Origin: Chiloscyllium plagiosum
Taxonomy: Eukaryota
Assembly (NCBI RefSeq): GCF_004010195.1
Contig: NC_057754.1
Span: 1,588,823-1,652,822, forward strand
DNA length: 64,000 bases
Direction: 5' to 3'
Translations under genes and position numbers: made by a program
The notes under the pieces: model-generated
Told to the model about the DNA's origin: nothing
The model's database searches: none
Seen by the model: only the letters and a program-made list of their open reading frames with translations
Shown: positions 262-63,721 of the stretch, piece by piece
Numbering within the stretch: position 1 is the stretch's first letter
How the letters are laid out: every line of letters begins with the position of its first letter

Positions 262-1225
262 CCAATACCTAGCAATGCTCATCTCATGCAAAATAGAGTC
301 TTAACTACATTCCCTTGATATTCAAACATATTACCATTGCTGAATCTCTCACCATCCTGGAAGGTATCATTTACCAGAAATTTAATGGGGAGAAAGTGAG
401 GACTGCAGATGCTGGAGACAGAGTCAAGAGTGGGGTGCTGGAAAAGCAAAGCAGGTCAGGCAGTATCCGAGGAGCAGGCAAATCAACATTTCGGGCAAGA
501 GCTCTTCATTAGGAATGAGGCTTGTGAGGCCGAGAGGGTGGAGAGATAAATGAGAGGGGGGTGTGGGTAGCTGAGAGTGCAATAGGTAGATGGAGGTGGG
601 GATAATGGTGATAGGTCAGAGAGGAGGGTGGAGCGGATAGGTGGGAAGGATGATGGACAGGTAGGACAGGTCATGAGGGCGGTGCCGAGTTGGAAGGTTG
701 GAACTGGGATAAGGTGGGGGGGGTGGGGATATGAGGAAACTGGTGAAATCCACATTGATGCCATGTGGTTGGAGGGTCCCAATGCAGAAAATGAGACGTT
801 CTTCCTCCAGGTGTCCGGTGGTGAGGGAGTGCCAATAGAAGAGGCCCAGGACTTGCATGTCCTTGATGGAGTGGGAAGGGGAGTTGAAGTGTTCGGCCAT
901 GGGGCGGTGGAGTTGGTTGGTGCAGGTGCCCCAGAGACATTCTCTGAAGCCCTCTGCAAGTAGACATCCTGTCTCCCCAATGTAGAGGAGACCGCATTGG
1001 GAGCAACGTATACAGTAAATGACGTGGAAGTGCAGGTAATTTACTGGACCAACTCCACAAATACTATGATTACAAGAGCAGATTAGAGGCTGAGAATTTG
1101 GGTGTGATTCTCTAGAGCCTGACCAACATTTTCAAGGCATACTTTCCACTTGCCTAGATGAGCAGTTCCAGCAACATTGAAGAAGCTCAACAGCATCCAG
1201 GACAAAGCAGTCCTCTTGCTTGGCA
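262..1225 (+). mobile_element. Old Crack/CR1-group LINE 3' fragment, split by a Penelope insertion (LINE parts ~262-389 and ~1039-1225)
   Basis: Both parts align by eye with the LINE at ~8600-8900 (e.g. aagaagctcaacagcatccaggacaaagc vs aagaagcttaacactatccaggacaaagc). AATTTA occurs on both sides of the inserted PLE. Confidence 0.6.
390..1038 (-). mobile_element. Penelope-like element family A, 5'-truncated: GIY-YIG endonuclease C-terminus plus terminal repeat with decayed hammerhead
   Basis: Minus ORF 616-900 (AEHFNSPSHS..MQVLGL..LEEERLIFCIGTLQPHGINVDF) is the typical PLE GIY-YIG C-terminal motif. Minus 483-512 reads cctaatgaagagctcttgcccgaaatgttga. Confidence 0.85.
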
Positions 1226-5772: not shown

Positions 5773-7431
5773 CTGCACCTTATAAATTGTTCCAGCAATT
5801 TCAAATTCTGTTCCTTGAAGTGATGTGCTTTTGATTGTCTATTCTTTATAGCTGTTTCCAAGACCTCGTGGCCCTATTTAAAATGTTTGGAGATGTGATT
5901 GTGTTCATGGCACAGGAAATGGGGCAAATTCCACAAAAATTAGATTGGACTTTGAACCTTTGGAGGTCATGGGCAATCCTGCTGCATGGTAGGAGGGTGT
6001 GTTTGTGCCACTACAATAGCTTGTCAGTCATTGTTCAGACAGAGGTTGCACAGGTCAAAGGCAAACCTTCACAGACCCATATTTACATAGATCATGCTGG
6101 AGGTAAGTAAATAACCTCTTGCTGTGGAAAATTAAGAGGGACATGCTTTATCTTGGTTTCAGTGCTGTTGTCACAGTCTGCCCTAGGCTGAGTTCAAATA
6201 TAATCTCATCCAAATTTGATCACTGTTGAGCAACCGGCTTGTGAAACATTTATTCCTATCAAATTTATCAAAAACAATGGCCTGGATTTCTGCTTTAAAG
6301 CACAATTGAATATAGACTGTGTTTTTGTCATTTCCTGTATATGTTTGAACCCATTTCAACTGCATTGGATCGGACCTGAATTGATTTTCTTGGCTGATGT
6401 CATGAGTGAGATAAGTTAGAAATACCTGTTTGTGTCCAATTTAGGGAGTGAAGTGAAAGGTTCTGAAACTTTCTTGTGAATATTAAAGTATTATAATTTT
6501 ACCGTTCTTGAATTTGTGTGTGATTATGGAGGGGATTACTGGAAGAGGAGTCAGTAAAATTTCATCAAAGCCATATGATTAACTTGCAAGTTTGTAATTG
6601 CTCTTTGGAATATTAAGTCAAATGGCAGTCTATGAAGTATCTAAATTCCCATATCAGAATTCACATGTACATTATATCATATTATTCTAACTAATAAGCA
6701 TTTATTCAGTAGGATGTTGTGAATTGGAATTTTCTTTTGGAAATGGTTAACTTGTTCAAAAACAAAGAAAGTAGGTTACATTGTTTCAGAATGAATTCTG
6801 CCCTGTGTTATATGTTGGTTTGATTCTTCTCTTGTGATTCAACCTTGGAATAAAGTACTCTGAGTGGTGTGTCTGCTATGTAATATCTACTTCTGGGGAA
6901 GCTCTCCCTTCCACTTCCACTGCATTATGAAGTAACTGCTGATTACTGTATCAGGGTACCTATTCTGCAGAATGAAAAAATCTTCATGAATTTAACTTGT
7001 CAAACCATTGTGCTAATAGAGATAAAGTTTGCTCTTCCTTTGTGTCATCAACTCCCTCTGGTTATGGGAGCTCAGGATTCAGTTTTTCTATAACTCGAAT
7101 CTGTGCAAATCTGCACCTAATTGTGCCCAGCAATGTGGCTGGCAATCTTAACTGGCCTTTGAAATGGCTCAGCCAGACATTCTGACCAAGGGACATTTAT
7201 TGGTAGCCAATAAATTGCAGGTCTTGCCAACGTCACTTGCATTTCTTTAAAAATAAAAAAAATGTACAAGACCTCGAATAAAGTCTTTCTTGTTCCGATT
7301 ATATCTATTTTAAGGCTGTGAGTAAAGCTAAAACTAATGATATTTTAAGCAAATAACCATGACCATACTCATTCATCAAGTTAGTCAGATCTCCTCTTCC
7401 CTTCATAATAATATAGGATATGGAGGCTAAT

Positions 7432-10356: not shown

Positions 10357-10521
10357 CTTCATATCTTACCAAACTCACCTCGTTAACAGCTATGTCATTC
10401 CTATATGTCCTTCCATCCGTCTACGTCCATCTTACTGTGCACCATTTCCAGAACAACTCACCATTCATCAGATATCCGCTAAAAGATTCACATCCATCTT
10501 AAATTAGATTAGGTTCTTAAA

Positions 10522-10823
10522 TTAGATTACTTACAGTATGGAAACAAGCCCTTCAGCCTAACAAGTCCACACCGATCCTCCAAAGAGCAACCCATCCAGA
10601 CCCATTCCCTTACACCTAATACTACGGGCAACTTAGCATGGCCAATTCACCTAACCTGCACATCTTTTGGACTGTGGGAGGAAACCGGAGTACCTGGAGG
10701 AAACCCACGCAAACACGGGGAGAATGTGCAAACTCCACACAGACAGTCGCCTAAGGTGGGAATTGAACCCAGGTCTCTGGCTTTGTGAGGCAGCAGTGCA
10801 AACCACTGTGCCACCGTGTCGCC
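10522..10823 (-). mobile_element. HE1-type V-SINE
   Basis: Minus strand has a tRNA-like head, V-domain (gtctgtgtggagtttgcacattctccccgtg...gggtttcctcc) and a CR1-like 3' tail. Confidence 0.9.
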
Positions 10824-10919
10824 CACTCCTGGTGCCTGCATCATACTTAAAATGCTGCTGTGCACCAGGACAAGCACTAAAGTTCTACAACTGCCCAGCT
10901 GGGTCAAGGACAAAGTCAG

Positions 10920-11514: not shown

Positions 11515-11759
11515 ACGAAAGTGAAGACTGCAGATGCTGGAGATTAGAGTTGAGAGTGTGGTGCTGGAAAAGCACAGCAGGTCAGGCAGCATCCGAGGAG
11601 CAGGAGAATCGACATTTCGGGCAAAAGCCCCTCATCAGCAATGGCATGTCTTATGGCAGAACTGAATGAGATGTCCAGTGAGCAGGCGAATCGATGTTTC
11701 GGGCAAAAGCCTTTCCCGATGAAGGGCTTTTGCTTGAACCTAAATTCTCTTGCACACCC
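11515..11759. mobile_element. Rearranged Penelope family A insertion
   Basis: Minus terminal repeat at 11515-11640, further hammerhead pieces in both orientations at 11680-11740, TSD gacatctcg at 11506-11514 and 11760-11768. Confidence 0.8.
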
Positions 11760-14159: not shown

Positions 14160-14312
14160 TCTTAGAATTAGAATTAGGTTTTATTGTCACATGTACTCAA
14201 GTACAAAAATACAGAAGTACAATGAAAAATGTACAATGTTGCCATACATGGCGCCACCTGAGGTACAAAGTACGTGTTACAAATCTTAAGTACAAAAATA
14301 AAGAAAAAAGCT
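14160..14312 (-). mobile_element. 3' tail fragment of the same family as the 33456-35415 composite element
   Basis: Minus gtactttgtacctcaggtggcgccatg...cttgagtacatgtgacaataaaacctaattctaattct aligns with ~35270-35415. Confidence 0.75.
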
Positions 14313-15431
14313 AAAAGTTCTCAAGCAATGCAAGCCTTTTTCTGTTTGTTAAAATTCTAAACATGTTCTTATATGGTTTAAGGGCTGTTTGGAATCTGTT
14401 ATGGCACTGACAATCCAAGTTAGTATGCTCAGTTTCTGAAGTTAATTCCTCCTAGAGATGCAGTACATTTAAAATAGATGTGAATAGTTGTAAGAACATA
14501 ATAAAACCTCAATGCTTGCACTAATAGAAGACAAACAGGTGTTTTAAGGAGATGAAGGTGACAAGAGAGTTATATTACAGCCATGTGCCTTGTGAAATGA
14601 TACGGTCTGTTTTGGATTCCTTATCTTACTGAAACTCAATGCATTAAATCTTTGTCATGTAACAACTTGCAAACCCAAAGAAGGGATAATTACCTACTGT
14701 AATTTTTTTTTCTTTTCATGATAACACCAAATCCTTCTATTTTCTCTGAGATCAATCGTATTTTACCATCTCATTGCTAATGTAACTGAAATTACTGAGT
14801 GATGCAGCAATTGAAGTTGTGCTGTGGAATGGCAGAATTATGAGGTATTTCCCCTAGTGATTTACTCAGACAACAAGTTCCTGACCTTGAGCCAGATTGT
14901 CTGTACTGAAGGAGAAGAGGCAACAAGATATTGTTCCAGAGAACAGGAGGAAAATTGAAGAGCATGGGCACCCAGAATTCCTCCACACGAATAGGTCCAA
15001 TAAACAATTTCAGTACAAGATTGCTGATAATGAATCTCTTGTTAGATTGAGAATGATGCCATAACTGAGGGAGGACTTAAACATGGAGGGAAATAAACAT
15101 CGGATTTGGGGGTTACCTTGGCATATATTGAATTTTAGGTGCAGATGCTGTAAATTTTGCTGTGCAAGTATAAGTTTTTCTGATCAAAATCACTTTTATT
15201 CACTATTCTCAAGTTTAATGTTGCGAAGATTTCTGTCAGCTGTTTCCAAGGCCATAGTCTTTAGAGAACCATCATGCTATGTAACCTAAATATAAGCTGT
15301 TGTGTGATTGGTTTAGTTCTGTAGATAAAACAGTTCCTTCTAAATGCATCAATCAATTACTTGAAAATATTGTCATCACTTAGTTAATCAAATACAGGAC
15401 TATTTGTATCACAGAATTGGTTCAGAACTTG

Positions 15432-17244: not shown

Positions 17245-18180
17245 TAAAGAAATAGTACTGCAGATGCTAGAGATCTGAAATAGAAAGAAAATTCCAAAGA
17301 AACTCAGTAGTCTGATAGCACCACCTCCACGATAATCCTCAACACCAGTGTGCTGCAAGGCTGTGTAACTGGATCGTTGACTTCCTGACCCATAGACCAC
17401 AATCAGTAAGAATAGGTGATAGCACCTCCTCCACGATAATCCTCAACACTGGTTTGCTGCAAGGTTGCGTACTTAGCCCCCAATATACACCTTATACATT
17501 CATGACTGTGTTGCTAAATTCCACCCCAACTCTATTTACAAGTTTGCTGACAACGCTACCATCGTAAATTAAATCTTAAATAACAACAAGACAATTCAAG
17601 AAAGAGATTGAATGCTGAGCAGCATGGTGTAAAGACGACAAGTTAACATTTTGAGTCCAATATGACTCTTCTTGGGAACTAAAGGGATTGGAAGTTATTA
17701 GGAATTACGTTGAAGAAAAAGTGGGAAGGAGGAGGACATGGAACAGATGATAAAAATGCCCCAGAGCAAAAGGCAATAACAGTGCTAATGGAAGCAGGAA
17801 AGAGATATGGATGAAGAATAGGTGTTAATAACAGAAAATAGGTCAGATGTAGTGACAGCAAATCTGTCACTACATCCATGCAAACAAGACACTGGGTATG
17901 GGTGAAGAAGGGAGTGAAGATAATCAAAATGGAGCTCAGTTCTCGTGGTTTGAAATTGTTAAATTCAATATAGAATACTGAAGCTGTTAACTGTCTAAAT
18001 GGAAAATTAAGTGCTGTTCTTCCAGCTTGTGCTGGGCTTTACTGAACATTGCAGTTAGACCTAGAATGGAAATATAGGCAAGGGAGCAAAAAGGTGTATT
18101 GAATGTCAAACACATTAAGATTGGAGGCATTCTTGTAGGTTGTGTGGAGGGTTTCCACAAAGTACTCTCACAGTCAGAAA
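17245..18180 (-). mobile_element. Old Penelope (family D-like) element, interrupted by Rex1 sequence
   Basis: Minus ~17995-18037 translates AQHKLEEQHLIFHL (GIY-YIG C-terminus). Terminal repeat is split between 17245-17320 and 17640-17680. Confidence 0.65.
17320..17640 (+). mobile_element. Internal Rex1/Babar RT fragment
   Basis: Aligns with ~19137-19407, including the KFADN (FADD box) region. No 3' tail. Confidence 0.8.
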
Positions 18181-18894: not shown

Positions 18895-19700
18895 TCGTGT
18901 TATGGCTCATGTGGACTCTAGCCTACGAAATTGCCTTGATCCTTTGCAATTCACCTACTGCAACAGGCCCACAGCAGACACCATCTCCCTGACCTTACAC
19001 ACATCCATAGAACATCTGGATAACAAGGATATCTATGTCAAGCTCTTACTTACTGACTACAGTTTTACCTTCAACACCATAATTCCAAATAAATTTATCT
19101 TTAAATTCTAAGACTTAGTTCTTGGCTCCCCCCTCTGTAACTGGGTCCTTGACTTCCTAACCCATAGACCACAATCAGTAAGAATAAGTGATAACATCTC
19201 CTCCACGATAATCCTCAACACCGGTGTGCTGCAAGGCTGTGTACTAAGCCCCCTACTATACTCATTATCCGCTCACAACTGTGTTGCCAAATTCCACCCC
19301 AACTCCATTTATACGTTTGCTGACAACACCACCACTGTAGGTTGAATCTCAAATAGCAACAAGACAATACATGAAATTAAGTGTTTAGCAGCATGGTGCA
19401 AAGACAATAATCTCTCCATCAACGTCAGCAAAACGAAGGAGCTGGCCATTGATATCAAGAAGCAGAGTGGAGGGCACGACCCAGTCTGTATCAATAATTC
19501 TGAGGTGGAGATGGTTGAGAGCGTCAAGTTCCTGGGAGTTATGATACGAGCAATCATCCATGGTCCATCCATGTCAATGCGACAGTCAAGAAAGCACAAC
19601 AACGTCTCTGCTTCCTCAGGAGGCTAAGGAAATTTGGCATGACCACAGGACTCTTACTAATTTTTATAGATACACCATAGAAAACATCCAATCTGGTTGT
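18895..19700 (+). mobile_element. Rex1/Babar LINE, decayed RT domain
   Basis: ORF 18902-19111 LDPLQFTY..TADTISLTLH..EHLDNKDIYVKLLLTDYSFTFNTIIP is the Rex1 RT signature. FADN at ~19316, then INVSKTKEL and VKFLG. Confidence 0.9.
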
Positions 19701-28689: not shown

Positions 28690-29660
28690 GCTCATTGAGA
28701 AGTGCACTTACCTCTCAGTCTGAAAGTTATACATAAAAGTCCCCCTTCAAGATTTGAACACAAGAATATGGGCTGACAATCCACTACTATTGCATGAGTG
28801 AGTCCTGCAATGTTGGAAGTATCAGACTGCCTCACTGTCAGAGGGTCAGTACCAAGTGAACACTGCATATTGGATAACTAGTACCAAAGAAATACTGCAT
28901 TGTTAGATGGTCAGTACTGAGATGATGCTACCTGTTAGAGGGTCATTACTGAAGGAGCACAGAACTGTTGGAGAGGCAATAGCCGAGTGAGTGTTGCATT
29001 GTCAAGAGTCAATGCTGAGTGAGCGCTGCACTGTCAGACAATCATTGCTAAGGTAGCATTACACTGTTGGAGGGACATTACAGAGGGACTGCTGCACTGT
29101 CAGAGGCTTGGTCCTGATGGAGCACCACACTATTGGAGGGTTACTAATGAGGAAGTACTACAGTTTTAGAGGGTCATTTCTAAAGGAGTACTGCAGTGTT
29201 GGAGGTTCACTAATGAGGGAATGCCGCACTGTCATAGGATCAGTAATGAAGGAGTGCCACATTGTTAGAGGGTCAGTACTGAAAGGGTGTTGCACTGTTG
29301 GAGTACTGAAGGAGTGCTGCGCTGTTGGAGGGTCAGTACTGAAGGAGTGCTGCATTGTCAGATTGTTAGTACTAAGGAAGTGATGCAATACTGGAGGGTT
29401 AGTACTGCGGAAGTGATGCACTGTTTTTGGATAAACCTTTAAAATGATGCTCACTCTAGCCTCACACTGAGTTAGCCTGGCGTCATGAATAATTTTAATC
29501 CCTCAATTACTATTACTGAAACAGAAATCTGGCTTGTAACAGGAATTTGCCATGAATAAATTGGATGCTGTGTTTCCTGCATTGCCAGTTTGTACAGATC
29601 AAGTACCTAATTCAGCATAAAATATTTGGAGCATTCTTAGGTTGTGAAAAGCACTTGAGA
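28690..29660 (+). mobile_element. Deu-domain SINE with internal 33-bp tandem expansion
   Basis: Decayed tRNA-like head at 28690-28780, array ~28790-29425, SINE 3' part (aaattggatgctgtgtttcctgc) after ~29500. Confidence 0.7.
28790..29425 (+). repeat. Minisatellite, 33-bp unit CTGCACTGTTGGAGGGTCAGTACTGAAGGAGTG, ~19 diverged copies
   Basis: Direct periodicity; produces the 11-aa repeat (GGSVLKECCTV-like) in ORF 29108-29383. Confidence 0.9.
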
Positions 29661-30435
29661 AATTAAAGTACTTTTTTTTCAAATCAACTTTTAGTGTAAT
29701 ATATACAGAATAATGTTTTTTGTTTTCTCTCCCCTCTATGGCATTTACTGTCAGGGTGAAATTTTCCTTTATTGAAAAATCAGGTTTATCTGCAAATGGT
29801 TGTGGGAAAATGAGACTGCACACTGGGAACACATTTAAGAGCGAGTGCGTTTCCTGTTCACCACTGACTGTCTTTTATGGAAAAGTCCATTAATGTTGAC
29901 AGTGGAGTAATTGTTTGAAATAGAGGAAGTAGTCATGTAAAAACTGAACCCAACATAACTGATGAATTTTCTCTTATTTCTCAGTGGAACAGAGCTTGTG
30001 AAGAACACAAAATGAAAAGTTTAACTTATTGCACCCAACCCTCCTTATAAAGGTTGCTGTTACACCAGTATTCATATTTCCACTTCTGATGTACAGTGTA
30101 TTATTGCCACTCTTACAAGCCCACCATATTATTAGGCTCCGAATAGAAAATCATCTTTGTTACATACTTTTCTCATGAGCAAGATCTCTGGTGTTCTGCA
30201 TTCTCAGTGGCTATGATTTTGGCAGTTTTGGCTGCAAAGTAAACAAGACAACACCACAATTACTGAGTAGTTCACTTCTGTGTAAAAGGGTGGTCAGCTC
30301 TGGCACCTTTGAAGGCAGCACTGCTTCCCGTGATAAACGTAAACACTTCAAAATCTGAGGTCACAGGTGAGCTGAGGACTAACCCCAACATCTCAAGTTA
30401 ACCCTGAAGTTTCTGCATGACTAGATCTACATGAA

Positions 30436-30515
30436 GGTAGCTTTTGCCCGAAACGTCGATTTTGCTGCTCGTCGGATGCTGCCTGAATTGCTGTGCTCTT
30501 CCAGCACCACTGATC
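30436..30515 (+). mobile_element. 80-bp Penelope family A fragment
   Basis: gcttttgcccgaaacgtcga...ccagcaccact. Perfect 15-bp TSD ctagatctacatgaa at 30421-30435 and 30516-30530. Confidence 0.9.
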
Positions 30516-31139
30516 CTAGATCTACATGAACTTTACTTACATATTGACCTGAAACAAAGCCAGGTGCTTCATTGAACTGTAAATCTATGTATGTATGTAT
30601 TGGCTTTCTTTTGTTCTGATGCAATAAAATCTGTCCAGCATTTAAAATACAGAGGGTTCTGTAGAAATGGAAACTAAGGTACTGCAGAATTCCTTCAGGA
30701 AACAGCTTTGTAAAAAACCTTTAGTTGTAATATCCCTGTTACATTTTACAGTCTGGTTATAGCAGCCTGATTTTTTAAATATCACTTTTTATTACTTTTG
30801 GCACATTCAGTATGATTAAACCTTGGAAGTGAGTTACAGAGTACTGCTTGAAGAGTTGTGGAAGGTAGTGGTTGTAGGTTAAGGGGGTGCTGCAGGGTTT
30901 GTACAAGAATGAAGAAAAGCTTTATTGGTTTCTATCTGTTTTGTTCACTTGGAAATTAGTTTCGGACCTTGAACTTGATCTTTGTTAAGTTTGTGAAATA
31001 AAAAAGGCTTCAGTATTTGGTAATTTTTCATTTGAGTTGTCTTGTTTCTATCAGTAAAAGGCTATACTTATAAGTAGTATCACTTGCTATTCAGTGATAG
31101 AATTCTTACTTTACAGTTTAAAAAAAAAACTAAAATCTT

Positions 31140-32330: not shown

Positions 32331-33085
32331 CTTTAATACGGGAGAGGAGTATACAGTAAATGACAGAACTCTTAGGAGCATCAACATATAGAGGGATACA
32401 GGTCCACAGTTCCCTGAAAGCATCAACACAAGTGGGTAAGATGCTAAGAAGGTATGTGTCATGCTTGCCTTCATCGGTTGGGGGGCATGGAGTTTAAAAA
32501 TTGGCAAGTCATGTTATAGTTGTACAGAACTTTAATTAGGCTGGATTTGGAATATTGTGTACGGTTCTGGTCGCCAGACTATCAGAAGGATGTGGAAACT
32601 TTGGAGAGGGTACAGAAAAGGTTTGCCAGAATTTTGCTGGTTTGGAGGGTATTAGCTATGAGGAGAGGTTGGACAAACTCAAGTTTGTTTTTACTTGAAC
32701 ATCAGAGGCTGAAGGGTGACCTATGTTGTTTACAAAAGTGTGAGAAGGATAGATAGAATGGAATTTTTTTTTCCCCCAGGGTAGAAATGTCAATTCCTAG
32801 AAAACATAGGTTTAAGGTAAAAGGGAGAAAGTTTAAAGGAGATATGAGAGGCAGTTTTTTTTTACACCGATGGTGGTAAGTGCCTGGGATGCGCTGCCAG
32901 AGGAGATGGTGGAAGCAGATACAATAGCAATGTTGAAGAGGCATCTTGACTGATACATGAATTGGCAGGGAATAAAAGAAATAAAGACTGTGTGAATGTG
33001 AAAGATTTTTAATTTTAAAAAGGCATCATGTGTCGGTGTAGGCTTGATGAGCTGAAGGGCCTGTTCCTGTGCTGTACTGATCTTT
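32331..33085 (+). mobile_element. CR1 3' fragment (second subfamily)
   Basis: YRTLIRLDLEYCVRFWSPDYQKDVETLERVQKRF; tail gctgaagggcctgttcctgtgctgtac. Confidence 0.9.
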
Positions 33086-33574
33086 GTTTTCTTTGTTCTA
33101 AAAGGATACAGTGTGACTCAGGTTGATAGAACGGTCATTGTAAATGCAGTCAGACAAATAATGGGTCTTACTCCCAGTTGGGTTGTTGTGAGGTAGAAAT
33201 CTAGAAGATAGGGTCAGCACTTCTCTCTTGAAACTATGTTTATCTGGGCTGTGATCAATACTGTCTCAGTAGCCAGTTCGAAAGCACCATGCGTTAGGAA
33301 CAGAAAATCTCTAAACTAGGACAGAATGTAGGAACTTTCAGAGAGGAGCCTGTAAGAATCTTACAGTGATATTTGGTGTTACAGGCGCTCTCCTCGAAGT
33401 GCAGATATCACAGGATGTATTGATAGCTGTTGTCAATAGCTAATGTGCCTGGAATCCAAGATGGCAGTGAAATGGGATGCTGCAGTTGGAGCTCGTCTGC
33501 TCAAACCTTTCCCTTCTTTTTCTTTTTTTAAATCTCGTGTTTTTTTTCTCTTTTTTTTTCCTCTTCCGCCAGCA

Positions 33575-35100
33575 GCTAGGAATGGAGTGGGGACTGCAGT
33601 CAGCAGCCTGGAATGGAGCAGGGATAATGGTCAGTGACCCAGAACAGTGTGGGGACAACCAGCGGCCTGAAGCGGGGCGTGGCCAGCAGCCTAAAGTGGA
33701 ATGGGGAGAGCAGTCAATGGTCCAGAATGGAGCAGGGGCAACCAGAGGCCTGGAACAGAGGAGGGACGGACAGTGGCCTGAAATGGATGCAGCCAGCAGC
33801 CCAGAGCAGGGACAGCAGTCAGTGGCCTGGAACAGAGTGGGGGCAGCCAGCACTCCAGAACGGTGTGGGATAGTTGTCAGCAGCCTGGAATGGAACAGGG
33901 ACAGTGGTCAGTGGCCCAGAATGGAGTGGAGATGGTGGTCAGTGTCCCAGAACCCAGCAGGGACAGCTAGTAGCCCAAAGCAGGGTGGGAGCAGCCAGTG
34001 ACCTGGAATGGAGCATGGAATATGGTCAGCGGAATGGGGGGGCTGCCAGCAGCCCAAAACAGTGTGAAGAGGCCAACGCGCCTGGAGCATAGTAGGGACG
34101 GACAGTGAGCCTGGAGCAGAGCTGGAATGGCCAGTGGACCTGGAGTGAAGTGGGGATGGCCCGCAGGCCTGGAGCAGAGCAGGGGTGGCCAGTTGGCCAG
34201 GAGCAGAATGGGGATGGCCATCAGGCCTGCAGAAGAGCGGGGACAGCCATCAGGCCTGGAGCAGAGCGGGGACTGCCAGCGGGCCTGGACCAGAGCCGGG
34301 CCTGGAGTGAAGTGGGGATGGCCAGTGAACCTGGTCCAGAGCAAGTCAGCCAGCAGGGGCTTTTGCCCGAAACGTTGATTTTACTGCTTCTTAGATGCTG
34401 CCTAAATTGCTGTGCTTTTCCAGCACCTCTAATCCAGCAGGCGTGGAGCAGAGCGGGGACAGCCAGCGGGCCTGGAGCAGAGCGGGGACGGCCAGCAGAC
34501 CTGGAGCAGAGCGGGGACAGCCAGCAGGCTTCGAGCAGAACGGGGATGGCCTGCAGGTCTGAACCAGAGCGGGGACAGCCAGCAGGCCTGGAGCAGAGCG
34601 GGGACGGCCAGCAGGCCTGGAGCAGAGCGGGGACGGCCAGCGGGCCTGGAGCAGAGCGGGGACGGCCAGCGGGCCTGGAGCAGAGCGGGGACAGCCAGCA
34701 GGCTTAGAGCAGAACGGGGACGGCCTGCAGGTCTGGAGCAGAGCGGGGACAGCCAGCAGGCCTGGAGCAGAGCGGGGACAGCCAGCAGGCCTGGAGCAGA
34801 GCGGGGACGGCCAGCGGGCCTGGAGCAGAGCGGGGATGGTCAGCGGGCCTGGAGTGAAGCGGGGACAGCCAGTGGGCCCAGAGTAAAGCTGGGACAGCCA
34901 GCAGAGTGGAGCAGAGTGGGACAGCCAGTGGGTCTAGAGTGAAGCTGGGTTGGTCAGCAGAGTGAAGCAGAGTGGGGATGGTCATTGGGTCTGGAGCAGA
35001 GTGGGATGACCAGTGGGCCAGAGTGAAGTGGGGCCAGCCAGCAGAGCAGAGCAGAGTGGAGATGGCCAGCTGCACTGAGCAGAGTAGGGATGATGGCTGG
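33575..35100 (+). repeat. GC-rich minisatellite, 29-bp unit GCCTGGAGCAGAGCGGGGACAGCCAGCAG, ~50 copies
   Basis: Direct periodicity; near-identical units at ~34440-34850, diverged toward both edges. Confidence 0.95.
34358..34433 (+). mobile_element. Penelope family A fragment nested in the VNTR
   Basis: ggcttttgcccgaaacgttga...ccagcacctctaat, flanked by ccagcagg on both sides. Confidence 0.85.
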
Positions 35101-36017
35101 CGGGACCCAGACCAAAGGTGGTTAATTGTTGGGGTCCAGTGGAGCCCAGTCAGACCCCACGGAAGCCCTTAGAGAAAGACTGTACTGTCTATCGTTTTGG
35201 CTTTATTTCTTATTTTGCTAACTTATATTGTGTATATTTGTAATGTAGTGCAACTTCTTTTTTTTATTTTTTCTATATATTTGCACCTATGATTTATACA
35301 TCGGTACTTTGTACCTAAGATGGCGCCGTGTGTTGGTGACACTGTACACTTTTCACTGTAATCCTGTTCTTTTGTAACTTGAGTACCCGTGACAATAAAT
35401 CTTATTTTATTCTATTGTGTTCTACTCTATCTGCCATCTTGGCTGTGGCTTAGTGGTTGAGCTCTCAAACTAGCAATGTCACTTGGCAAAGTCTAGTTTT
35501 GGGAAAGGCCTCGGTCACTTATAGCATTGGAAATGGATCTGTAACATTAAAAGAGCATAAAATAGCAAAACTAATGCCTTGAGACAGCTTAAATAAGTAT
35601 TTTACAACTTTTAACGTTGTCCAGTCTCTTGATGAAATTGGTGACTGCAGAAATTTCACTGCTGTCATTTTTGTAAAGCCAGTTGATGTGATTCCTGCTT
35701 TTGATCTGCTTTTGTTTGCCTTTACAACGCTAAATAATGTGAGAGATGCTTTCTTCCATTTTCCTCAGTTGATGATTGTCACCATTATTTAAGCATTTGA
35801 TTTCTTTAATTGTGATTATTATCTAAACAGCAACTGTGTAAAATGCCTTACCAGTAGCTCTGCTGCTAGTTTGCTGGAGACGAGATAAACACATCGATGA
35901 TGATCGATGAGAATAGCTTTCCTAACAACAGACTGAAAATTGAATGAAAATTGACATGGCCTGTTTTCCTGCAATTTCACTTAGTAAAATGTTTGCTCAT
36001 TCTAGGCTAGACACTGT

Positions 36018-37669: not shown

Positions 37670-37800
37670 AGGTAAAAACAATGACTGCAGATGCTGGAAA
37701 CCAGATTCTGGATTAGTGGTGCTGGAAGAGCACAGCAGTTCAGGCAGCATCCAAGGAGCTTCGAAATCGACGTTTCGGGCAAAAGCCCTTCATTAGGAAT
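37670..37800 (-). mobile_element. Penelope family A terminal fragment
   Basis: Minus attcctaatgaagggcttttgcccgaaacgtcga. Confidence 0.85.
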
Positions 37801-37975: not shown

Positions 37976-38063
37976 GCTACATGCTGAAGAAGCAGTGCTC
38001 CAAAAGCTAGTACTTCCAAAGAAACCTGTTGGACCCTAGCCTGGTGTTGTGTGATTTTTAACT
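37976..38063 (+). mobile_element. Penelope family B fragment
   Basis: gcagtgctccaaaagctagt...gtgatttttaact; ttgaaggaca duplicated on both sides. Confidence 0.8.
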
Positions 38064-38864
38064 TTGAAGGACATGTTTAGAGAGATATTCATGGTTGAAC
38101 AAGGCTGATTAGACTACCAGGAATCACTTCAATATCGCTGTTTTGTAATCTAGCTTCAGGAACTGATATGATCTGAGCATGTTTCGTATGGAAAAATACT
38201 TATTAAATAATTTATTAATACTTATTATTTGATATTTCAGGCTGGAAACCAGAAACTTTCCTAAGTCATATTTTCAAGCCCCCTTGATCCATCCATCATT
38301 TGTTGTAAACGAGGAATACTACTCCTTTTGGGAACTGCTGTTTGGGATGTTTTTGTCTTCAATATCACCACTGATTTAAGCAATGCCAGGTTGGACAATT
38401 CTGATATTTTCATTGATGTATTTTGAAAAGTTGTTTTCCCCTGTAGTCACATGCTAGGCTTTCCTCTATTTGCATAGTTATTCTTAGATATCTCCCTAAG
38501 TTGTGTAGCAAGCTACCTATAATCTCTGTGTCTTCCTTGGTATCTTCAATTCTTTAACTGCTGCACAGTATCAGATCTGCAGTCTCAAGACTTTAAATCT
38601 GATCTGGGCTGTATAACTACCGTTCCCTCTTGATGCCATTTTGTCACATGGCTACAAACAAAGATATAATTAAAGTTCGCACTTGTTGTACCAGCACAAA
38701 ATTCGAGAAAAATAACTCAGTCCTGTAGTGGGACAGGTAGGAACTCAGCACATGCCGGTGAGGTGGTAACCTTGACAGCCATGAGAAGCTGAACAGATGC
38801 TTTCAATAATGTGCCATTCCATGCTTCTGCAACACAAGTTTGACTTCAACAGTCAGTTAGTGAC

Positions 38865-39330: not shown

Positions 39331-39775
39331 ATAAATAGAAAGCATTTGGATTTTTGGCAGAAAGCTAGGACTCAATTTATATGCAAGGTGTATGAAAATT
39401 TAGAAATTTTGGGTGAACCGTGAGGAGTTGAATTCTGCAAAAGGTCGACAATTATCATTCCTTTATCACCTTTTGCTGGTGCTGTTTGTGGCAACTCCTA
39501 CCAGGAGATCTACTATCAGGGTACACCAGAGTTTTCTGTCTTGCAACATCCTCACATATTCACCAATTTATCTGAAAACACTTTGCAACGTCCATCGTCG
39601 AAATATACCTGTGTCAACCCATCTTTCTGCTGCCATCCACTTTGACCTGTGGAAGATATTTCGGTATCTTTTGAATTCTTTTACCAAGTCCAAAATTGAA
39701 CAGGGGGAATCATACATGAAACAAATGAAAAGATCAGAATGTGAATTTTGCAGATGAATATTCATTGAAGATCTT

Positions 39776-40368
39776 ATAGAGACATCAACTCATAGAGCAC
39801 GGAGACAGGCCCTTTGACCCAAACTGGTCCATGTTGGTCAAAACATTTGTCCACACTAACCCCATTTCCCTGAACTTGACCCATATAGAGACATCAACTC
39901 ATAGAGCACGGAGACAGGCCCTTTGACCCAAACTGGTCCATGTTGGTCAAAACATTTGTCCACACTCCCATTTCCCTGAACTTGACCCATATCCTTCTAA
40001 TCCTTTTCTGTCCATGCATTTGTCCAAATGCCTTTTAAATGTTGTACTTCCACTGGCAGCTCATTCCATATGTGTACTACTCTCTGCGTAAAAAGGTTGC
40101 CCCTCAGGTTCCCTTTAATTATTTCACGTCTAACCTTAAACTGGTGGCCTCTCGTCCTCGATTCCCCAACCCTAGGAAAAAGACTAAGTGCATTCACCCC
40201 ATCCATGCCTCTAACCATCTTATACACCTTTATAAGGTTCCCCCTCTGTCTCCTACACTATGAAGAAAAATGACCAAGCTTGTCCACCTCTCCCTATAAC
40301 TCAGACTGTTTATTCCAGGCAACATCCTCGTAAATTTCTTCTGCACTTTTTCCAGTTTAATAACACCC
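39776..40368 (-). mobile_element. CR1 3' fragment with tandemly duplicated tail
   Basis: Minus ORF YKMVRGMDGVN..LFPRVGESRTRGH..FTQRVVHIWNELP; ~109-bp duplication at 39776-39990. Confidence 0.9.
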
Positions 40369-41694: not shown

Positions 41695-41987
41695 GTAGGC
41701 ATCTGCTTATTGACTATAGTTCCACCGTCAACACCATAATTTCAAACAAATCCGAGACCGAGGTGTCAGCTCCCCCTTCTGTAACTGGATCCTCGATTTT
41801 CTGACCTAGAGACTGCAATCAGTAAGAATAGGTGACAACACCTCCTCCATCATAATCCTGAACATCGGTGTGCCGCAAGGCTGCGTTCTGTTATCCTATG
41901 CACTTTGTATAGAATGATCTGTCTGTACTGCATGCAAAACAAACCTTTCACTGTACCTAGGCATGTGACAATAATAAATCAAATCAA
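41695..41987 (+). mobile_element. Internally deleted Rex1/Babar copy with 3' tail
   Basis: LLIDYSSTVNTII and CNWILDFLT..QSVRIG segments joined to tail ctttcactgtacctaggcatgtgacaataataaatcaaatcaa. Confidence 0.8.
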
Positions 41988-47319: not shown

Positions 47320-49920
47320 ATAGCCCCCTTCCCCCAAAAAAGTCAGAGGGAATTTGAGGAACAAATATGTAGAGAGATCTCAGATATATGTAAGAATAAT
47401 AAGGTGGTAAGAATAGGTGGCTTTAATTTTCCAAACATTGACTGGGATTGCCTTAGTGTCAAAGGCTTAGAATAAGAGGAATTTGTTAAATGTGTTCACA
47501 AAAATTTTCTTTATCAATATCTAAATGCACTTACTAGAGAAGGAGCCTGGGAAATAAGGCAGGGCAAGTGACAGAAGTGTTAGTAGGGGAACACTTTAGG
47601 AAGAGTGATCATGATTCTATTAGTTTAAAATAGTTATGGAAAAGGATAAGCCTTCCATGAAAGTTAAAGTTCTTAATTGGAGTAAGGTAAATTTCAATAG
47701 CATGAGACAAGAATTTTCAAAGGTTGGTTGGAGTAGTCTGTTCGCAGGTTAAGAGATGACTGACAAATGGAAGGCTTTCAGAAGTGTGATAACGGGCGTT
47801 GAGAGGCATTATGTTCCTGTTTGAGTACAGGGTAGCTTGGTAAAAGTAGGGAACAATGGATGAATAAAGATATTGAGGTTCTAATCAAGAATAAGAAAAA
47901 AATCTTATTTTAGATATAGACAACTAGGATCAAATGAATCTCTTGAAGAGTACAAAGCATGTAAGGGCGTTCTTATGTGGGAAATCAGGAGGACGAAGAG
48001 GGGATATGAGATAACCTTGGCAGATAAGGTTAAGGATAACCCAAAGAGATTCTACAAGGTTAAAAATCGCACAACACCAGGTTATAGTCCAACAGGTTTA
48101 ATTGAAGATTCTGCAAGTGCATTAAGAGCAAAAAAGCAACTAGAGAGAGAAAACAGGGCCCCTTAAAGGTCAACGAAGTTATTTATGTGTTGAACTTCAG
48201 GAGATGGGAGACATACTAAATGAATACTTCATGTCAGTTTTTACTGTGGAGGAAGAAATGGAGGTTAGAGAGCTTGGGGAAATAAATATTGATATTTTGA
48301 AAACAGTTCACATTACAGGAGAAGTGCTGGAGGTCTTAAAAAACATAAAGGTGGATAAATCTCCAGAACCTGATCTAGTGTATCCGAGGACAATGTGGGA
48401 AGTTAGGGAAGAAATTGCAGGGCACCCAGCAGAAGTATTTAGATCATCTATAACCATGGGTGAGGTGCTGGAGGACTGGAGGCTGGCTAATGTTATACCT
48501 TTATTTAAGAAAGGCTGTAAGGAAAAGCCTGGGAACTGTAGACCTGTGAGCCATACATTGATGATGGGTAAGTTGTTGGAAATGATTTGAGAGATATGAT
48601 TTACATGCATTCGGAAAGGCAAGGACTGATCAGGGATAGGCAGCATGGTTTTGTACATGGGAAAACATGTGTCACAAACTTGTTTGAGTTTTTTGAGGAA
48701 GAAACCAAAACGATTGATGGGAGCAAAGCAGTAGACATTGCTTATGTGTACTTTAGTAAAACCTTTGACACGGTTCCACATGTTAGACTAATTAGTAAAG
48801 TAAGATCACATGGGATTCAGGGAGAGATTGCCAATTGGATACAAAACTGGCTTGGCAGTAGGAGACAGAGGTTGGTGGTGGAGGATTGTTTTTTGGACTG
48901 GAGGCCTGTGACTTGTGGTGTTCCACAGGAATTGGTACTGAGTCCATTTTTGTTTGTCATTTATATAAATGATTTGGATGACACCAAAATGATAGTGAAG
49001 AAGGCTATCTAAGATTATAAAGAAATCTTGATCAGCTGGACCAATGGACTGAGAAGTGGCAGATGCAGTTTAATTTGGATAAATGTGAGGTGATGCATTT
49101 TGGTGAAACAAACAAGAGCAGGACTTATACAATTAATGGTAGGGCCTTAGAGAACAAAGAAACTGAGGGGTTCAGGCACATAATTCTTGGAAATCTACAT
49201 CACAGGTAGACAGAGTGGTTAAGAAGGCATTTAGCAGGCTTGCCTTCATTGCTCAGAAGTCTGAATATAGAAATTGGGACATCATGTTGAGGTTGTACAG
49301 GATGCACTTCCGTTCGCCTGCTATAGGAATGATATCATGAAGCAACAGAGGGTTCAGGAAAAATTTGGAGAAAGTGAGGACTGCAGGTGCTGGATATCAG
49401 AGTTGAAAAGTGTGGCACTGGAGAAGCTCAGGCAGCATTCGAGGAGCAAGAGAGTCGATGATTTATCAGGCTGTTGCTGGGAATCGAGAGTTTGAGTTAT
49501 AAGGAGAGGCTGGGGATTTTTTTCACTGGAGCATATGTAGTTGAGGGGTGACCTTTTAGAAGTTTATAAAATTGAGGTGCATAGATAAGGTGAAGCGTCT
49601 TTTCCCTAGGGTGGGGGAGTTCAAAACTGGAGGGGAGGTGCATATTTTTAAGGTGAGAGGGTAAAGTTTTAAAAAGGACATACAGAGCGACGTTTTTTAC
49701 ACAAAGAGTGGTACGTATGTGGAATGAACTGCCAGAGGAAGTGGTGGGTGCAGGTGCAGATAAAACATTTAAAAGACATTTTAGATAAGTACATGAATAG
49801 GAAAGGTTTGGAGGGGTATGGGCAAAACGCAGGCAAGTGGGACTACTTAAGATTGGGAACATGGTTGGCATGGACTGGTTGGATCAATGGGTCAGTTTCC
49901 ATTCTGTTTGACTCTATTAC
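47320..49920 (+). mobile_element. Long CR1 ORF2 remnant (APE endonuclease end, RT, 3' UTR) with nested PLE fragments at ~48058-48104 and ~49365-49480
   Basis: GGFNFPNIDW, KSPEPDLVYPR, DWRLANVIPLFKKG, QHGFVHGKTCVTNL, GVPQELVLSPFLFVIYINDLD. Confidence 0.95.
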
Positions 49921-55044: not shown

Positions 55045-55590
55045 AATTGGAGATGCCGGTGTTGGACTGGGGTGTACAAAGTTAAAAATCACACAACACC
55101 AAGTTATACTCCAACAGGTTTAATTGGAAGCACAGTAGCTTTCGGAGTGCTGCTCCATCAGGTGGTTGTGGAGGACACAGTTGTAAGGCACAGAATTTAT
55201 AGCAAAAGTTTACAGTGTGATGTAACTAAAATTATTCATTGAAAAATACCTTGATTGTCTGTTGAGTCTTTCATCTGTTCGAAAACCATGATAGTTTCAT
55301 TTCTTTCGTGTGTAAATCACAAAACTTTTTTTAAAAGTTGCATTCTCAGGTTAACTGTAACAATTGGTGTTAGCTAGACAATATGTTGAAGGTGTTAGCC
55401 CCTTGTGTTCTCTGTCTGTGCCATAATGTTTAGATAGATTCTAATCTAAAAAGTGAGATAACAGAGTTTTACATGAATTCATGAAGTTTTTGAGCAAAGT
55501 ACAATGTAACTCTGCAAGTACAAATTCACCCCACAAATATATGTATTTGTGTGCATGTGGGTCTTTATGTCTGTGTGTGTGGGGGGGGTA
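55045..55590 (-). mobile_element. Penelope family B 3' UTR/terminal repeat nested in CR1, followed by a family A fragment (~55610-55705)
   Basis: Highly similar to 1442-1617 (direct) and ~1850-2335 (inverted). Confidence 0.9.
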
Positions 55591-56221
55591 AAACAGAGAA
55601 CTCAGATCTGGATGACAAGGGCTCCTGCCCGAAATGTTGATTTTCCTGCTCCTTGAATGCTGCCTGACCTGCTGTGCTTTTCCAGCACCACTCTAATCTT
55701 GTCCCTGAAATGGTTGATAATGATCTGATTGGACATAGTCACCACGGATTTGTGAATGCGAAATTATGTTTGACAAACTTTTTGAGAATGTTACTAACAA
55801 AATGACAAAGGAGAATGAATGGATGTAATATACTTAGGTTTTCAGAAGGCTTTTGATAAAGTCCTCCACAGGAGGCTGATTAAAGAATTAAAATGCAGGG
55901 GATAGGAAATGTACTGAATGATAAGCTAACAGACAGGCAAGCTGTGATTAGTGAGGTACACAAGGCTCAGTACTTGGGCCTCAGCTGTTCACAATATTTA
56001 TCAGTGGTTTAGTAGTGGGGACCAAATGTAATATTTCCAAACTTGCAGATGGTGCAAAGCTAAAATTGAGCTAACTGACTCCAGTAAGAAAAACAGATAG
56101 CAGAATATTCCTTAAACTGTAAGAGATTGGCAAGTGTACAAAAGTACAAAAGAACCTCTGTGTTCTTGTCAATAAGTCACGTCTGGTGCAGCAACTATTA
56201 GAAAGGCTAATGTATGTTGTA

Positions 56222-61626: not shown

Positions 61627-61834
61627 TGAAAATGTGTTGCTGGAAAAGCGCAGCAGGTCAGGCAGCATCCAAGGAATAGGAGAATCGACGTTTCGGGCAT
61701 AAGCCCTTCTTCAGGAAGGCTTATGCCCAAAACGTCGATTCTCCTGTTCCTTGGATGCTGCCTGACCTGCTGCGCTTTTCCAGCAACACATTTTCAGCTC
61801 TGATCTCCAGCATCTGCAGCCCTCACTTTCTCCT
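61627..61834. mobile_element. Young fold-back Penelope family A insertion
   Basis: ~82-bp inverted arms (61624-61705, 61718-61799) with 2 mismatches. TSD caaaggatgacaagc at 61612-61626 and 61835-61849. Confidence 0.95.
61687..61714 (-). ncRNA. Minimal type I hammerhead ribozyme motif (family A), core intact
   Basis: Minus CUGAAGA-A-GGGC-UUAU-GCCC-GAAA-C-GUC. Helix I is weak. Confidence 0.7.
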
Positions 61835-63114
61835 CAAAGGATGACAAGCAAAAGTTCAGTTGAGTAAAAGTTGTAAAGGGTATGTTTAGGAAATAAATGT
61901 TTTCTTCATTTCCTGCTTCTTTATGGTTTAAGGAAATATTTGCAGATAATCCTAATTTCTTCAACTGAGACTATAACTGTAGTAGGATTTGTACATAGGG
62001 TCACAATTGCCAGCTCTGTTGGTGACCTGGTGGGCCATGATAATAGGCTACATGTGCCAGGTACAGGTTAAGTCTCCAAGCTCTGCTTCATCAACTGCTC
62101 TGAGCCCGGGTGGTAGGTATTGGTGTCTCTAGGCTAGTGCATTGATAGATCATGCTGGATTTTCATCCCTAGCAGTGAGTTGCTGGCAGAGTATGCTATA
62201 TGGAAAGTACATTATGCTCAGCCATGAATACCTCTGGAGGAATCTACTGAAACTCACAAGGTAAGATTAGGTATGAATGACCTCCATATATACCTGAGTT
62301 TTGCTGGCTTCTATGAGCTTCAGCAACTATCATCATCTTCAGGAAAATGAGAAGAGAAACGAGGGAAGAACAAGATAGCAGCCTTCCAGCTTTACTGTAG
62401 ACTTGTGTTTTGGTTTTCTGTAATCTTTCAATGGTAACACTGTGAGATTTCATTCTTTAAAGATTCACTGAGCTTGTTAACTGAGAATTAATGAAATTGA
62501 AGAGCATGTTATGAATTAGTTGCTCACTTGGATAGGGTTAAATTGGATAGTTCTCAATTCCTATTATTCCCAATCTTCCATTACAGCGAATTAGACTCTC
62601 AGGATGTTAGTGAACATTGGAATATGTGATGAAAGAAGGGTCTGACCATATAATTTGGAAATTAATCTTATTTTGAACTGGTCAGTGGTAACTTAGAAGT
62701 CAACACACAATGATGAATGAGATGAGCTGTAAATGAGCTGAGCTGGTATAGCACTGTATAGCTGGTGTGGCTTTCTCTGCGGATGCAATTATATCATTTG
62801 TGTAGACTTTTTCATTCATCCACAGTGTACTCAACTTACTATGTAAAGGCTGGAAATAAAATGTTGATGTATGCTTTCCTCTAAGGATGTAATGGTTAAA
62901 CTTGGTCTCCAATCCATCACCTAGACGTTTTAAATTGCCAGCCAAGTCATTTTTTATGGTCTCCAGAAATGATCTTTAGGTTCAAACAGCTTTAACCTTT
63001 AGTTTGACTGGGATTGCATGTTTTGATGTTACAGCCAGAATTTCAAGAAAAGATTTAAAAATGTGAAATATTTTTTAAGTCTAAAGGACTTGTTGTGGCA
63101 CTTGCATTCTGGTA

Positions 63115-63422
63115 GTTTAGATTAGATTCCCTACAGTGTGGAAACAGGCCCTTCAGCCCAACCAGTCCACACCGACCCTCCGAAGAGTAACTCACCCAGA
63201 CCCATTTCCCTCTGACTAATGCACCTAACACTATGGGCAATTTAGCAAGGCCAATTCACCTGACCTGCACATTTTTGGACTGTGGGAGGAAACTGGAGGA
63301 AACCCATGCAGACACAGGGAGAATGTGCAAACTCCACACAGACAGTCACCCGAGGCTGGAATCAAACCTGTGATCCTGGTGCTGTGAGGCTGCAGTGCTA
63401 ACCACTAAGCCACCATGCCGCC
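63115..63422 (-). mobile_element. HE1-type V-SINE
   Basis: Same structure as 10522-10823; minus head gggcggcatggtggcttagtggttagcactgc. Confidence 0.9.
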
Positions 63423-63721
63423 CATTTATTTTATGGGAAAGTTAAAATTAAGTGTACATTTTTTGAACAGTTGGGGTACCGTCACAACTCAAACAGGTAT
63501 GTGGTTCCACAGACATTAGTGGTGTCCTGGTATTTCATCCACGAAGTCTTTTTTTCCTATGTGTGAAACCATACAGTAATTGTTGGCAAGTTGTTTGATT
63601 GTGAGAGGCTACCGCTGCTAATTCCAGTGACAATGCCATCCTGCTTCCATCCTGGTGAAAGATGAAAGCTCGCTCACCTCATGTTAAAATTAAAACTGGG
63701 ACTCCTCTACTTTGTTTCAAC

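Follow-up and report, generated by a model that had tools for sequence, protein, structure and literature searches.

A probable non-coding retroposon with a GC-rich minisatellite and a LINE-type 3' end in the shark Chiloscyllium plagiosum

What is the repeat at positions 33456-35430 of a 64,000-nucleotide stretch of the Chiloscyllium plagiosum genome? (We call the whole stretch the window.) A sequence-only reading had proposed an SVA-like composite retroelement with a YY1-type head, a GC-rich VNTR, and a Rex1-like tail. We judge it fairly probable that this is a single old copy of a non-LTR retroposon that is abundant, non-coding, and non-autonomous, is probably of polymerase II type, and has a putative head and a Rex1/Babar-like LINE as its mover. 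We also lean towards a particular order within the copy: the putative head, a T-rich tract, a GC-rich minisatellite, and a LINE-type 3' end of about 270 bases. All of the parts of the element that we describe are on the plus strand.

The window has a GC content of 40% and is full of LINE and other repeat pieces. As had been claimed, the element contains no TE-like coding sequence: no Pfam family matched either of the two plus-strand translated frames that were scanned, and protein searches returned no relatives. It shares this lack of coding capacity with the bipartite, ORF-less derivatives of LINEs. The translated VNTR, used as a probe for other copies, had no match at E ≤ 0.001 among 8000 candidates. 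It had 10 matches in a representative library, and the seven that we inspected were unrelated repetitive sequences. The window contains no tRNA according to ARAGORN, and Rfam gave a single chance match (E = 0.76) and no SRP-type families. Our literature search found no description of such a shark family (Repbase, Dfam, and the supplements of genome papers were outside its scope). Exact tail motifs had 0 matches in metagenome contigs, viral contigs, and prokaryote genomes, which is uninformative because these collections need not contain shark DNA.

Evidence from other loci comes from 34935-35775, that is, the 500 bases at the element's 3' end plus flank, which were aligned at 80% likeness in 4 of 24 listed public runs. 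These are X1 (the same species), X13 (a relative), X9 (a small run with 73% of the words of the locus), and X21 (poly(A) RNA, about 2/100 of the run). The full order of head, VNTR, and tail appears at this locus, and other loci were compared for 34935-35775 only. We aligned 1067 contigs from X1 (1001 of them less than 95% alike), 1118 from X13, and 35 from X9, as well as 75 reads from X21. Summed depth in X1, which is not the same as copy number, peaks at 430 in a VNTR piece (34964-34992), at 1414 in the pre-tail (35196-35224), and at 7134 in the tail (35341-35369). This climb toward the 3' end suggests 5' truncation, but it may instead mirror faster divergence. The copies are dispersed and have a common 3' end, and a variable 5' extent is suggested by the depth gradient alone. 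Four small data sets, X9 to X12, with contigs totalling 104-198 million letters, contain 57-73% of the words of 33000-36000, and in X9 the VNTR-type contigs from other loci are unusually deep.

At 23 or more listed positions in 35157-35388, the copy departs from the X1 majority depth, which puts its divergence from the family at about 10% or more. The orthologous insertion is present in the relative, in three contigs with differences at 8/232, 9/214, and 12/450 bases; the last of these bridges tail and flank. The insertion is older than the split from this relative, which is 3-4% away.

The 3' end is as had been described, with TTTCACTGTA at 35351 and GTGACAATAAA at 35389, followed by a simple repeat of TTCTA type that extends to about 35430. 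The pre-tail (35111-35261) is common to other loci from about 35127-35140, and other-locus pieces at 35140-35260, 35127-35263, and 35161-35391 show about 80-84% identity. The conserved tail (35262-35399) was recognized from the match to a second copy, the peak in depth, and folds; it contains AAGATGGCGCC, TTTCACTGTA, a decayed terminal hairpin, and GTGACAATAAA, with its AATAAA signal. We take the TTCTA/CTAATT-type microsatellite that follows (35400-35430) as the family's 3' end from the loose ends of other-locus contigs: behind 35406, 40 contigs in X1 and 32 in X13 open with CTAATT repeats, after which agreement is lost. From 35428 on, the depth in each DNA run is that of the locus's own contig only. 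A tail-only copy had been claimed near 14 kb, and we recovered it on the minus strand at 14160-14316 (reversed at 14316-14172, 78% over 148 columns, E = 2e-26). It ends in CTAATT repeats and has no VNTR and no counterpart of the inverted arm discussed below. This copy folds a terminal hairpin directly ahead of the last motif, with z-scores for the folds (-0.76 and -1.82) that are not significant.

All 75 of the X21 RNA reads are less than 95% alike, so they derive from other copies. Eight of them end, in the sense orientation of the element, in a poly(A) run some 17 bases past AATAAA. No RNA run was listed as containing this locus, which says nothing either way. The poly(A) reads show that the 3' end is used, not that the family is active, and their sources may be a few loci, host 3' UTRs, or genomic A runs. 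(An element-only transcript from X9 was a candidate that we dropped, as the own-locus contig continues into the flank to 35607.)

Which LINE could be the partner? The comparator is a rearranged LINE piece at 41706-41985 (plus strand), in which a tail with AAATC repeats and the same two motifs as in the element comes almost immediately after an RT fragment. (The piece is itself internally deleted.) The sequence-only reading had likened the element's end to the tail at about 41945-41985; we found the two motifs in the same order (41946-41974), but no long alignment. The pattern TTTCA(C/T)TGTA, then GTGACAATAA within 45 bases, occurs at three places in the window: 35351, 41946, and, on the minus strand, 14227. 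When the two tails were compared with 41946-41974, 15 and 9 of 2000 shuffles scored equally well, as did 11 and 4 of 902 window pieces. After the RT side of the query had been trimmed, at least 8 of 901 window pieces outscored this copy (29), and one of 901 outscored the 14-kb copy (36). The match is short; it beats most shuffles, but for this copy it does not rise above the window background in one of the two tests. The RT fragment is 75.6% like an RT piece at 19049-19245, whose frames match RVT_1 (E = 4e-5 and 0.0015, below the curated cut-off) and PF09004 (E = 5e-12); this pairing also occurs in close relatives. We take the RT-linked tail piece to belong to the Rex1/Babar clade, and our literature search found no link in print between PF09004/DUF1891 and Rex1. 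Judging from sequence, a Rex1/Babar-type LINE is a plausible partner; no LINE carrying exactly this tail was seen. In all, the window contains three RT fragments from a single type of LINE (17313-17636, 18944-19700, and 41706-41985), each of them broken, with RVT_1 and, at 19519-19677, PF09004.

A LINE-like family end and tail-only copies would also be expected if the VNTR and tail belonged to an autonomous LINE subfamily as its long 3' UTR. This copy would then be an ordinary 5' truncation, and the "head" would be UTR or flank. A distant ORF would be invisible, given that only 30 letters of the upstream loose ends are visible. However, there is no RT remnant upstream, 33100-33460 has no repeat match within the window, and the promoter-like motif sits precisely at the change in composition. 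Also, a 3' UTR of 2 kb would be long for a LINE of this kind. We consider this explanation unlikely, and we prefer a non-autonomous retroposon with a putative head of its own.

As had been claimed, the segment starts with CCAAGATGGC at 33456. The putative 5' head of this retroposon (33456-33510; start CCAAGATGGCAG) has a YY1-like motif and no second copy in the window. A T/C-rich tract (33511-33567), read from the sequence, leads from the head to the repeat region, and 33456-33567 as a whole is 46% T. Across all 64 kb, just two places, 33457 and 35433, have CAAGATGGC or its complement. Among the window matches to the putative head, none is a LINE 5' end. The translated head frame matched 0 of 34 candidates at E ≤ 10, which is weak evidence. 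Fish Rex1-type elements have AAGATGGCG starts, then T-rich tracts. The YY1-type label on the motif is our assumption. In mammals, L1 promoters have documented YY1 sites (PMC7778262).

The first 12 bases of the putative head (33456-33467) have an inverted match at 35431-35442 (GCCATCTTG), which the sequence-only reading had reported and which our comparison of the window to itself confirmed. The match is beyond the family's 3' end: the first bases of the 3' flank are the exact complement of the first bases of the head. Such matches are rare, as inverted matches of at least 12 bases were found in 5 of 2476 pairs of zones 2 kb apart, and two of the five are this locus by arithmetic. The match could be due to chance, to the choice of target, or to an inverted copy of the target. 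This bears on whether the VNTR and tail form a real retroposon whose 5' end is not CCAAGATGGC. The 12 bases would then be flank or an inverted target copy from integration, and their YY1 look would be coincidental; or the head would be a decayed tRNA-type SINE head. There is a B-box-like 9-mer at 33499, and in salmon SINEs the RSg-1 tail is indeed combined with tRNA or 5S heads (PMC3747384). But B-box-like 9-mers occur in 207 of 2132 60-base windows, so Pol III boxes are at chance level, and neither ARAGORN nor Rfam found a small-RNA-derived head (a decayed head could escape both). Furthermore, in the relative's orthologous contig, C35435T breaks the 3' arm, and AAGATGGC is present in the conserved tail as well. 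A different 5' end seems quite unlikely to us, and we keep 33456 as the putative start of the retroposon.

The repeat region had been described as about 1.5 kb of 29-bp VNTR. Sequence related to the unit does extend across about 33568-35110, but clean periodicity covers only about 0.7 kb, and a 77-bp piece interrupts the array. The arrays are 66-72% GC. The first part (33568-34072) is degenerate G-rich sequence akin to the unit, with few CpGs (o/e 0.19) and an unclear period (the best autocorrelation is 0.40, at period 31). When ten 60-base windows starting at 33551-34001 were scored against the unit consensus, seven exceeded 29, the highest background score in the window, one equalled it, and two were below it. 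Then come eight 29-bp units with a mean pairwise identity of 71% (34073-34356) and, beyond the interruption, a homogeneous core of 15 units that are 88% identical pairwise (34434-34868). The 29-bp periodicity is clear at 34073-34350 (autocorrelation 0.65) and 34434-34870 (0.88) only. The core includes a duplication of a six-unit, 174-bp block (34463-34636 versus 34637-34810, 167/174 bases identical), and core units at lag six are 94.6% alike, versus 85-88% at other lags. It is also rich in CpG (o/e 0.52, versus 0.10-0.22 in the outer parts). A homogeneous and CpG-rich core with a block duplication suggests a recent expansion at the DNA level, in place, within an older array. The last part (34869-35110) has degenerate units with a period of 28/56. 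Many other-locus contigs match 34964-35021, where the summed depth is 430 and 268, versus 4-18 in adjacent bins.

The interruption (34357-34433), which had gone unnoticed in the sequence-only reading, is an unrelated high-copy piece with 11 other matches in the window (E ≤ 3e-7). We take it to be a Penelope-type 3' fragment. The octamer CCAGCAGG brackets it on each side and is a possible TSD, but this octamer belongs to the unit too. Four of the eight other copies that we aligned begin with CTGATGA or CTAATGA ahead of the common part. Copies of the piece are also at about 390-517, 2385-2476, 11517-11643, 30431-30516, 37683-37800, 55617-55699, and 61629-61836; the last comprises two directly adjoining copies that are inverted relative to each other. 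Several copies start with a hammerhead-like motif (CTGATGA...GAAAC). Near the window's start, a stop-free frame (616-1131, minus strand) lies beside an end that we presume to be Penelope-type; Pfam gave no match for two frames there, including this one, which we take to be GIY-YIG-like.

Does the VNTR travel with the tail at other loci? Two joints from the VNTR to the pre-tail, among 15 of 70 joints, indicate that it does in at least some copies: 35001 to 35186 (one contig in X1, with a short side of 31 bases) and 35005 to 35203 (one contig in X9, with a short side of 40 bases). The two contigs that make this VNTR-to-tail link cover 31-40 bases on their shorter side, at a threshold of 80%. A joint from 35216 to 35368 has a depth of 8.84, as does the first of these joints, so it is probably from the same contig, which would place VNTR, pre-tail, and tail in order. 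Periods of 58, 58, 58, and 60, or about two units, come from four back-joints at other loci that have unit-like letters in between. So, of the family that had been proposed, we see dispersed copies with a LINE-type 3' end, and VNTR-type units of the same period at other loci; for co-occurrence, we see a VNTR-type unit joined to the pre-tail in at least two contigs. This is modest evidence from sequence that the VNTR is part of the family at some other loci. Tails are common (two in 64 kb) and the core expanded locally, which would fit a local minisatellite that happens to lie beside an independent tail fragment. We think that this is very unlikely, given that many other-locus contigs in both species match the unit, that they show 58-60-base repeats, and that two of them are joined to the pre-tail.

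No usable TSD was found, in agreement with the sequence-only reading: the longest direct match between the end zones in a TSD scan is five bases. An old TSD, if there was one, could have decayed. The flanks just outside the 12-bp arms are ...GGAAT and CTGTG..., with no TSD there. The sequence-only reading had left open a non-autonomous DNA transposon with 12-bp TIRs as its bounds, which would explain a perfect inverted match at both ends that is rare by chance, but this is extremely improbable because no other-locus contig aligned past 35427 and over the arm (other copies continue with CTAATT repeats, with no arm in the 30 letters visible), the 14-kb copy lacks the arm, the arm is outside the family's 3' end and is broken in the relative's copy, RNA reads reach poly(A) ahead of it, and there is no TSD outside the arms.

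For the non-autonomous retroposon that we favor, the likeliest origin would be a LINE with an internal deletion that kept its 5' end and 3' UTR, and its GC-rich interior might then have given rise to the VNTR. Polymerase II would transcribe the element, using an internal promoter within the putative head, and a Rex1/Babar-type LINE would supply the reverse transcriptase, which would recognise the RNA by its 3' hairpin and motif. (A 3' stem-loop is what stringent LINEs read; PMC5135761.) Insertion would be by target-primed reverse transcription, and most copies would be 5'-truncated and would lack a clear TSD. After insertion, this copy would have taken up the Penelope-type piece, and its core would have grown at the DNA level by the six-unit duplication.

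How similar is this to SVA? SVA, LAVA, PVA, and FVA are described as hominoid-specific and as having a 5' part with a CT hexamer and an Alu-like region, a GC-rich VNTR, and mobilisation by L1 (PMC4432496). Like them, the shark element has a central GC-rich VNTR in a non-autonomous non-LTR element, and its organised arrays of units are remodelled at the DNA level, here by duplication of the 174-bp block. However, where SVA and LAVA have the 5' CT hexamers and Alu-like region, the shark element has a putative head of 55 bases and a T/C tract, with no hexamer array. The SVA unit is 30-50 bp, while the shark unit is 29 bp. SVA and LAVA have TSDs and are moved by L1, whereas we found no TSD in the shark element and its copies end in a microsatellite. 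Thus, the label "SVA-like" holds for the layout but not for the defining parts of SVA, which are absent, nor for the 3' end. The shark element is not a member of this group, although it works somewhat like SVA, and no homology is implied.

The shark element is closer to the bipartite derivatives of LINEs than to SVA. Like these ORF-less elements, it is non-coding, has a LINE-type 3' end and no small-RNA head that we could find, is probably transcribed by polymerase II, and would be moved in trans. It differs in having 1.5 kb of minisatellite in the middle. The passages of PMC5786205 on such derivatives, which are probably transcribed by polymerase II, name RTE, Ingi, Vingi, and R2 only and not Rex1, and the word "tandem" is absent from the main text of this paper (Kojima 2018). 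ORF-less bipartite derivatives also appear in PMC7245038.

Two other kinds of elements have similar 3' ends. RSg-1 belongs to the Rex1 clade. SINEs with RSg-1 or Rex1 tails (SlmI, HpaI, OS-SINE1, and SINE2-5_NV) have a borrowed LINE 3' end, as the shark element seems to, and have small-RNA heads (PMC3747384, PMC5135761). These SINEs are short, with tRNA or 5S heads, whereas the shark element is about 2 kb and no such head was detected. Rex1/Babar LINEs themselves have a conserved 3' UTR and then an oligonucleotide run (PMC6274825), and they are often truncated; the shark element resembles them in these respects, but is without endonuclease or RT sequence.

A bolder proposal is that a family of VNTR composite retroposons arose in sharks independently of primate SVA and is abundant and still transcribed there, with copies that combine a YY1-type polymerase II head, a GC-rich VNTR of 29-bp units, and a tail of Rex1/Babar type. 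These would be ORF-less bipartite derivatives of a LINE clade not listed as a source, would seed minisatellites and CpG-rich patches genome-wide, and would be absent from repeat libraries. We offer this tentatively and consider it doubtful as a whole. If it is true, then the VNTR composite layout would have a second origin with a different partner enzyme, which would provide a natural comparison for the role of the VNTR in a retroposon and would account for the GC-rich minisatellites that are dispersed through shark genomes. Should the putative head fail, this would be an ordinary repeat family that deserves a library entry.

We also noted several other repeats in the window. A second minisatellite, at 28895-29425, has about 16 degenerate copies of a 33-bp unit. 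At 39775-39992, a LINE/SINE-like piece ends in a near-perfect tandem duplication of 109 bp (97%). An inverted repeat pair of about 510 bp (1827-2335 and 55079-55589, 89%), which we take to be probably a SINE, has partial copies at 1443-1619, 37985-38066, and 48053-48104. Finally, 10517-10825 and 63117-63424 form a direct repeat pair of about 310 bp (80%).
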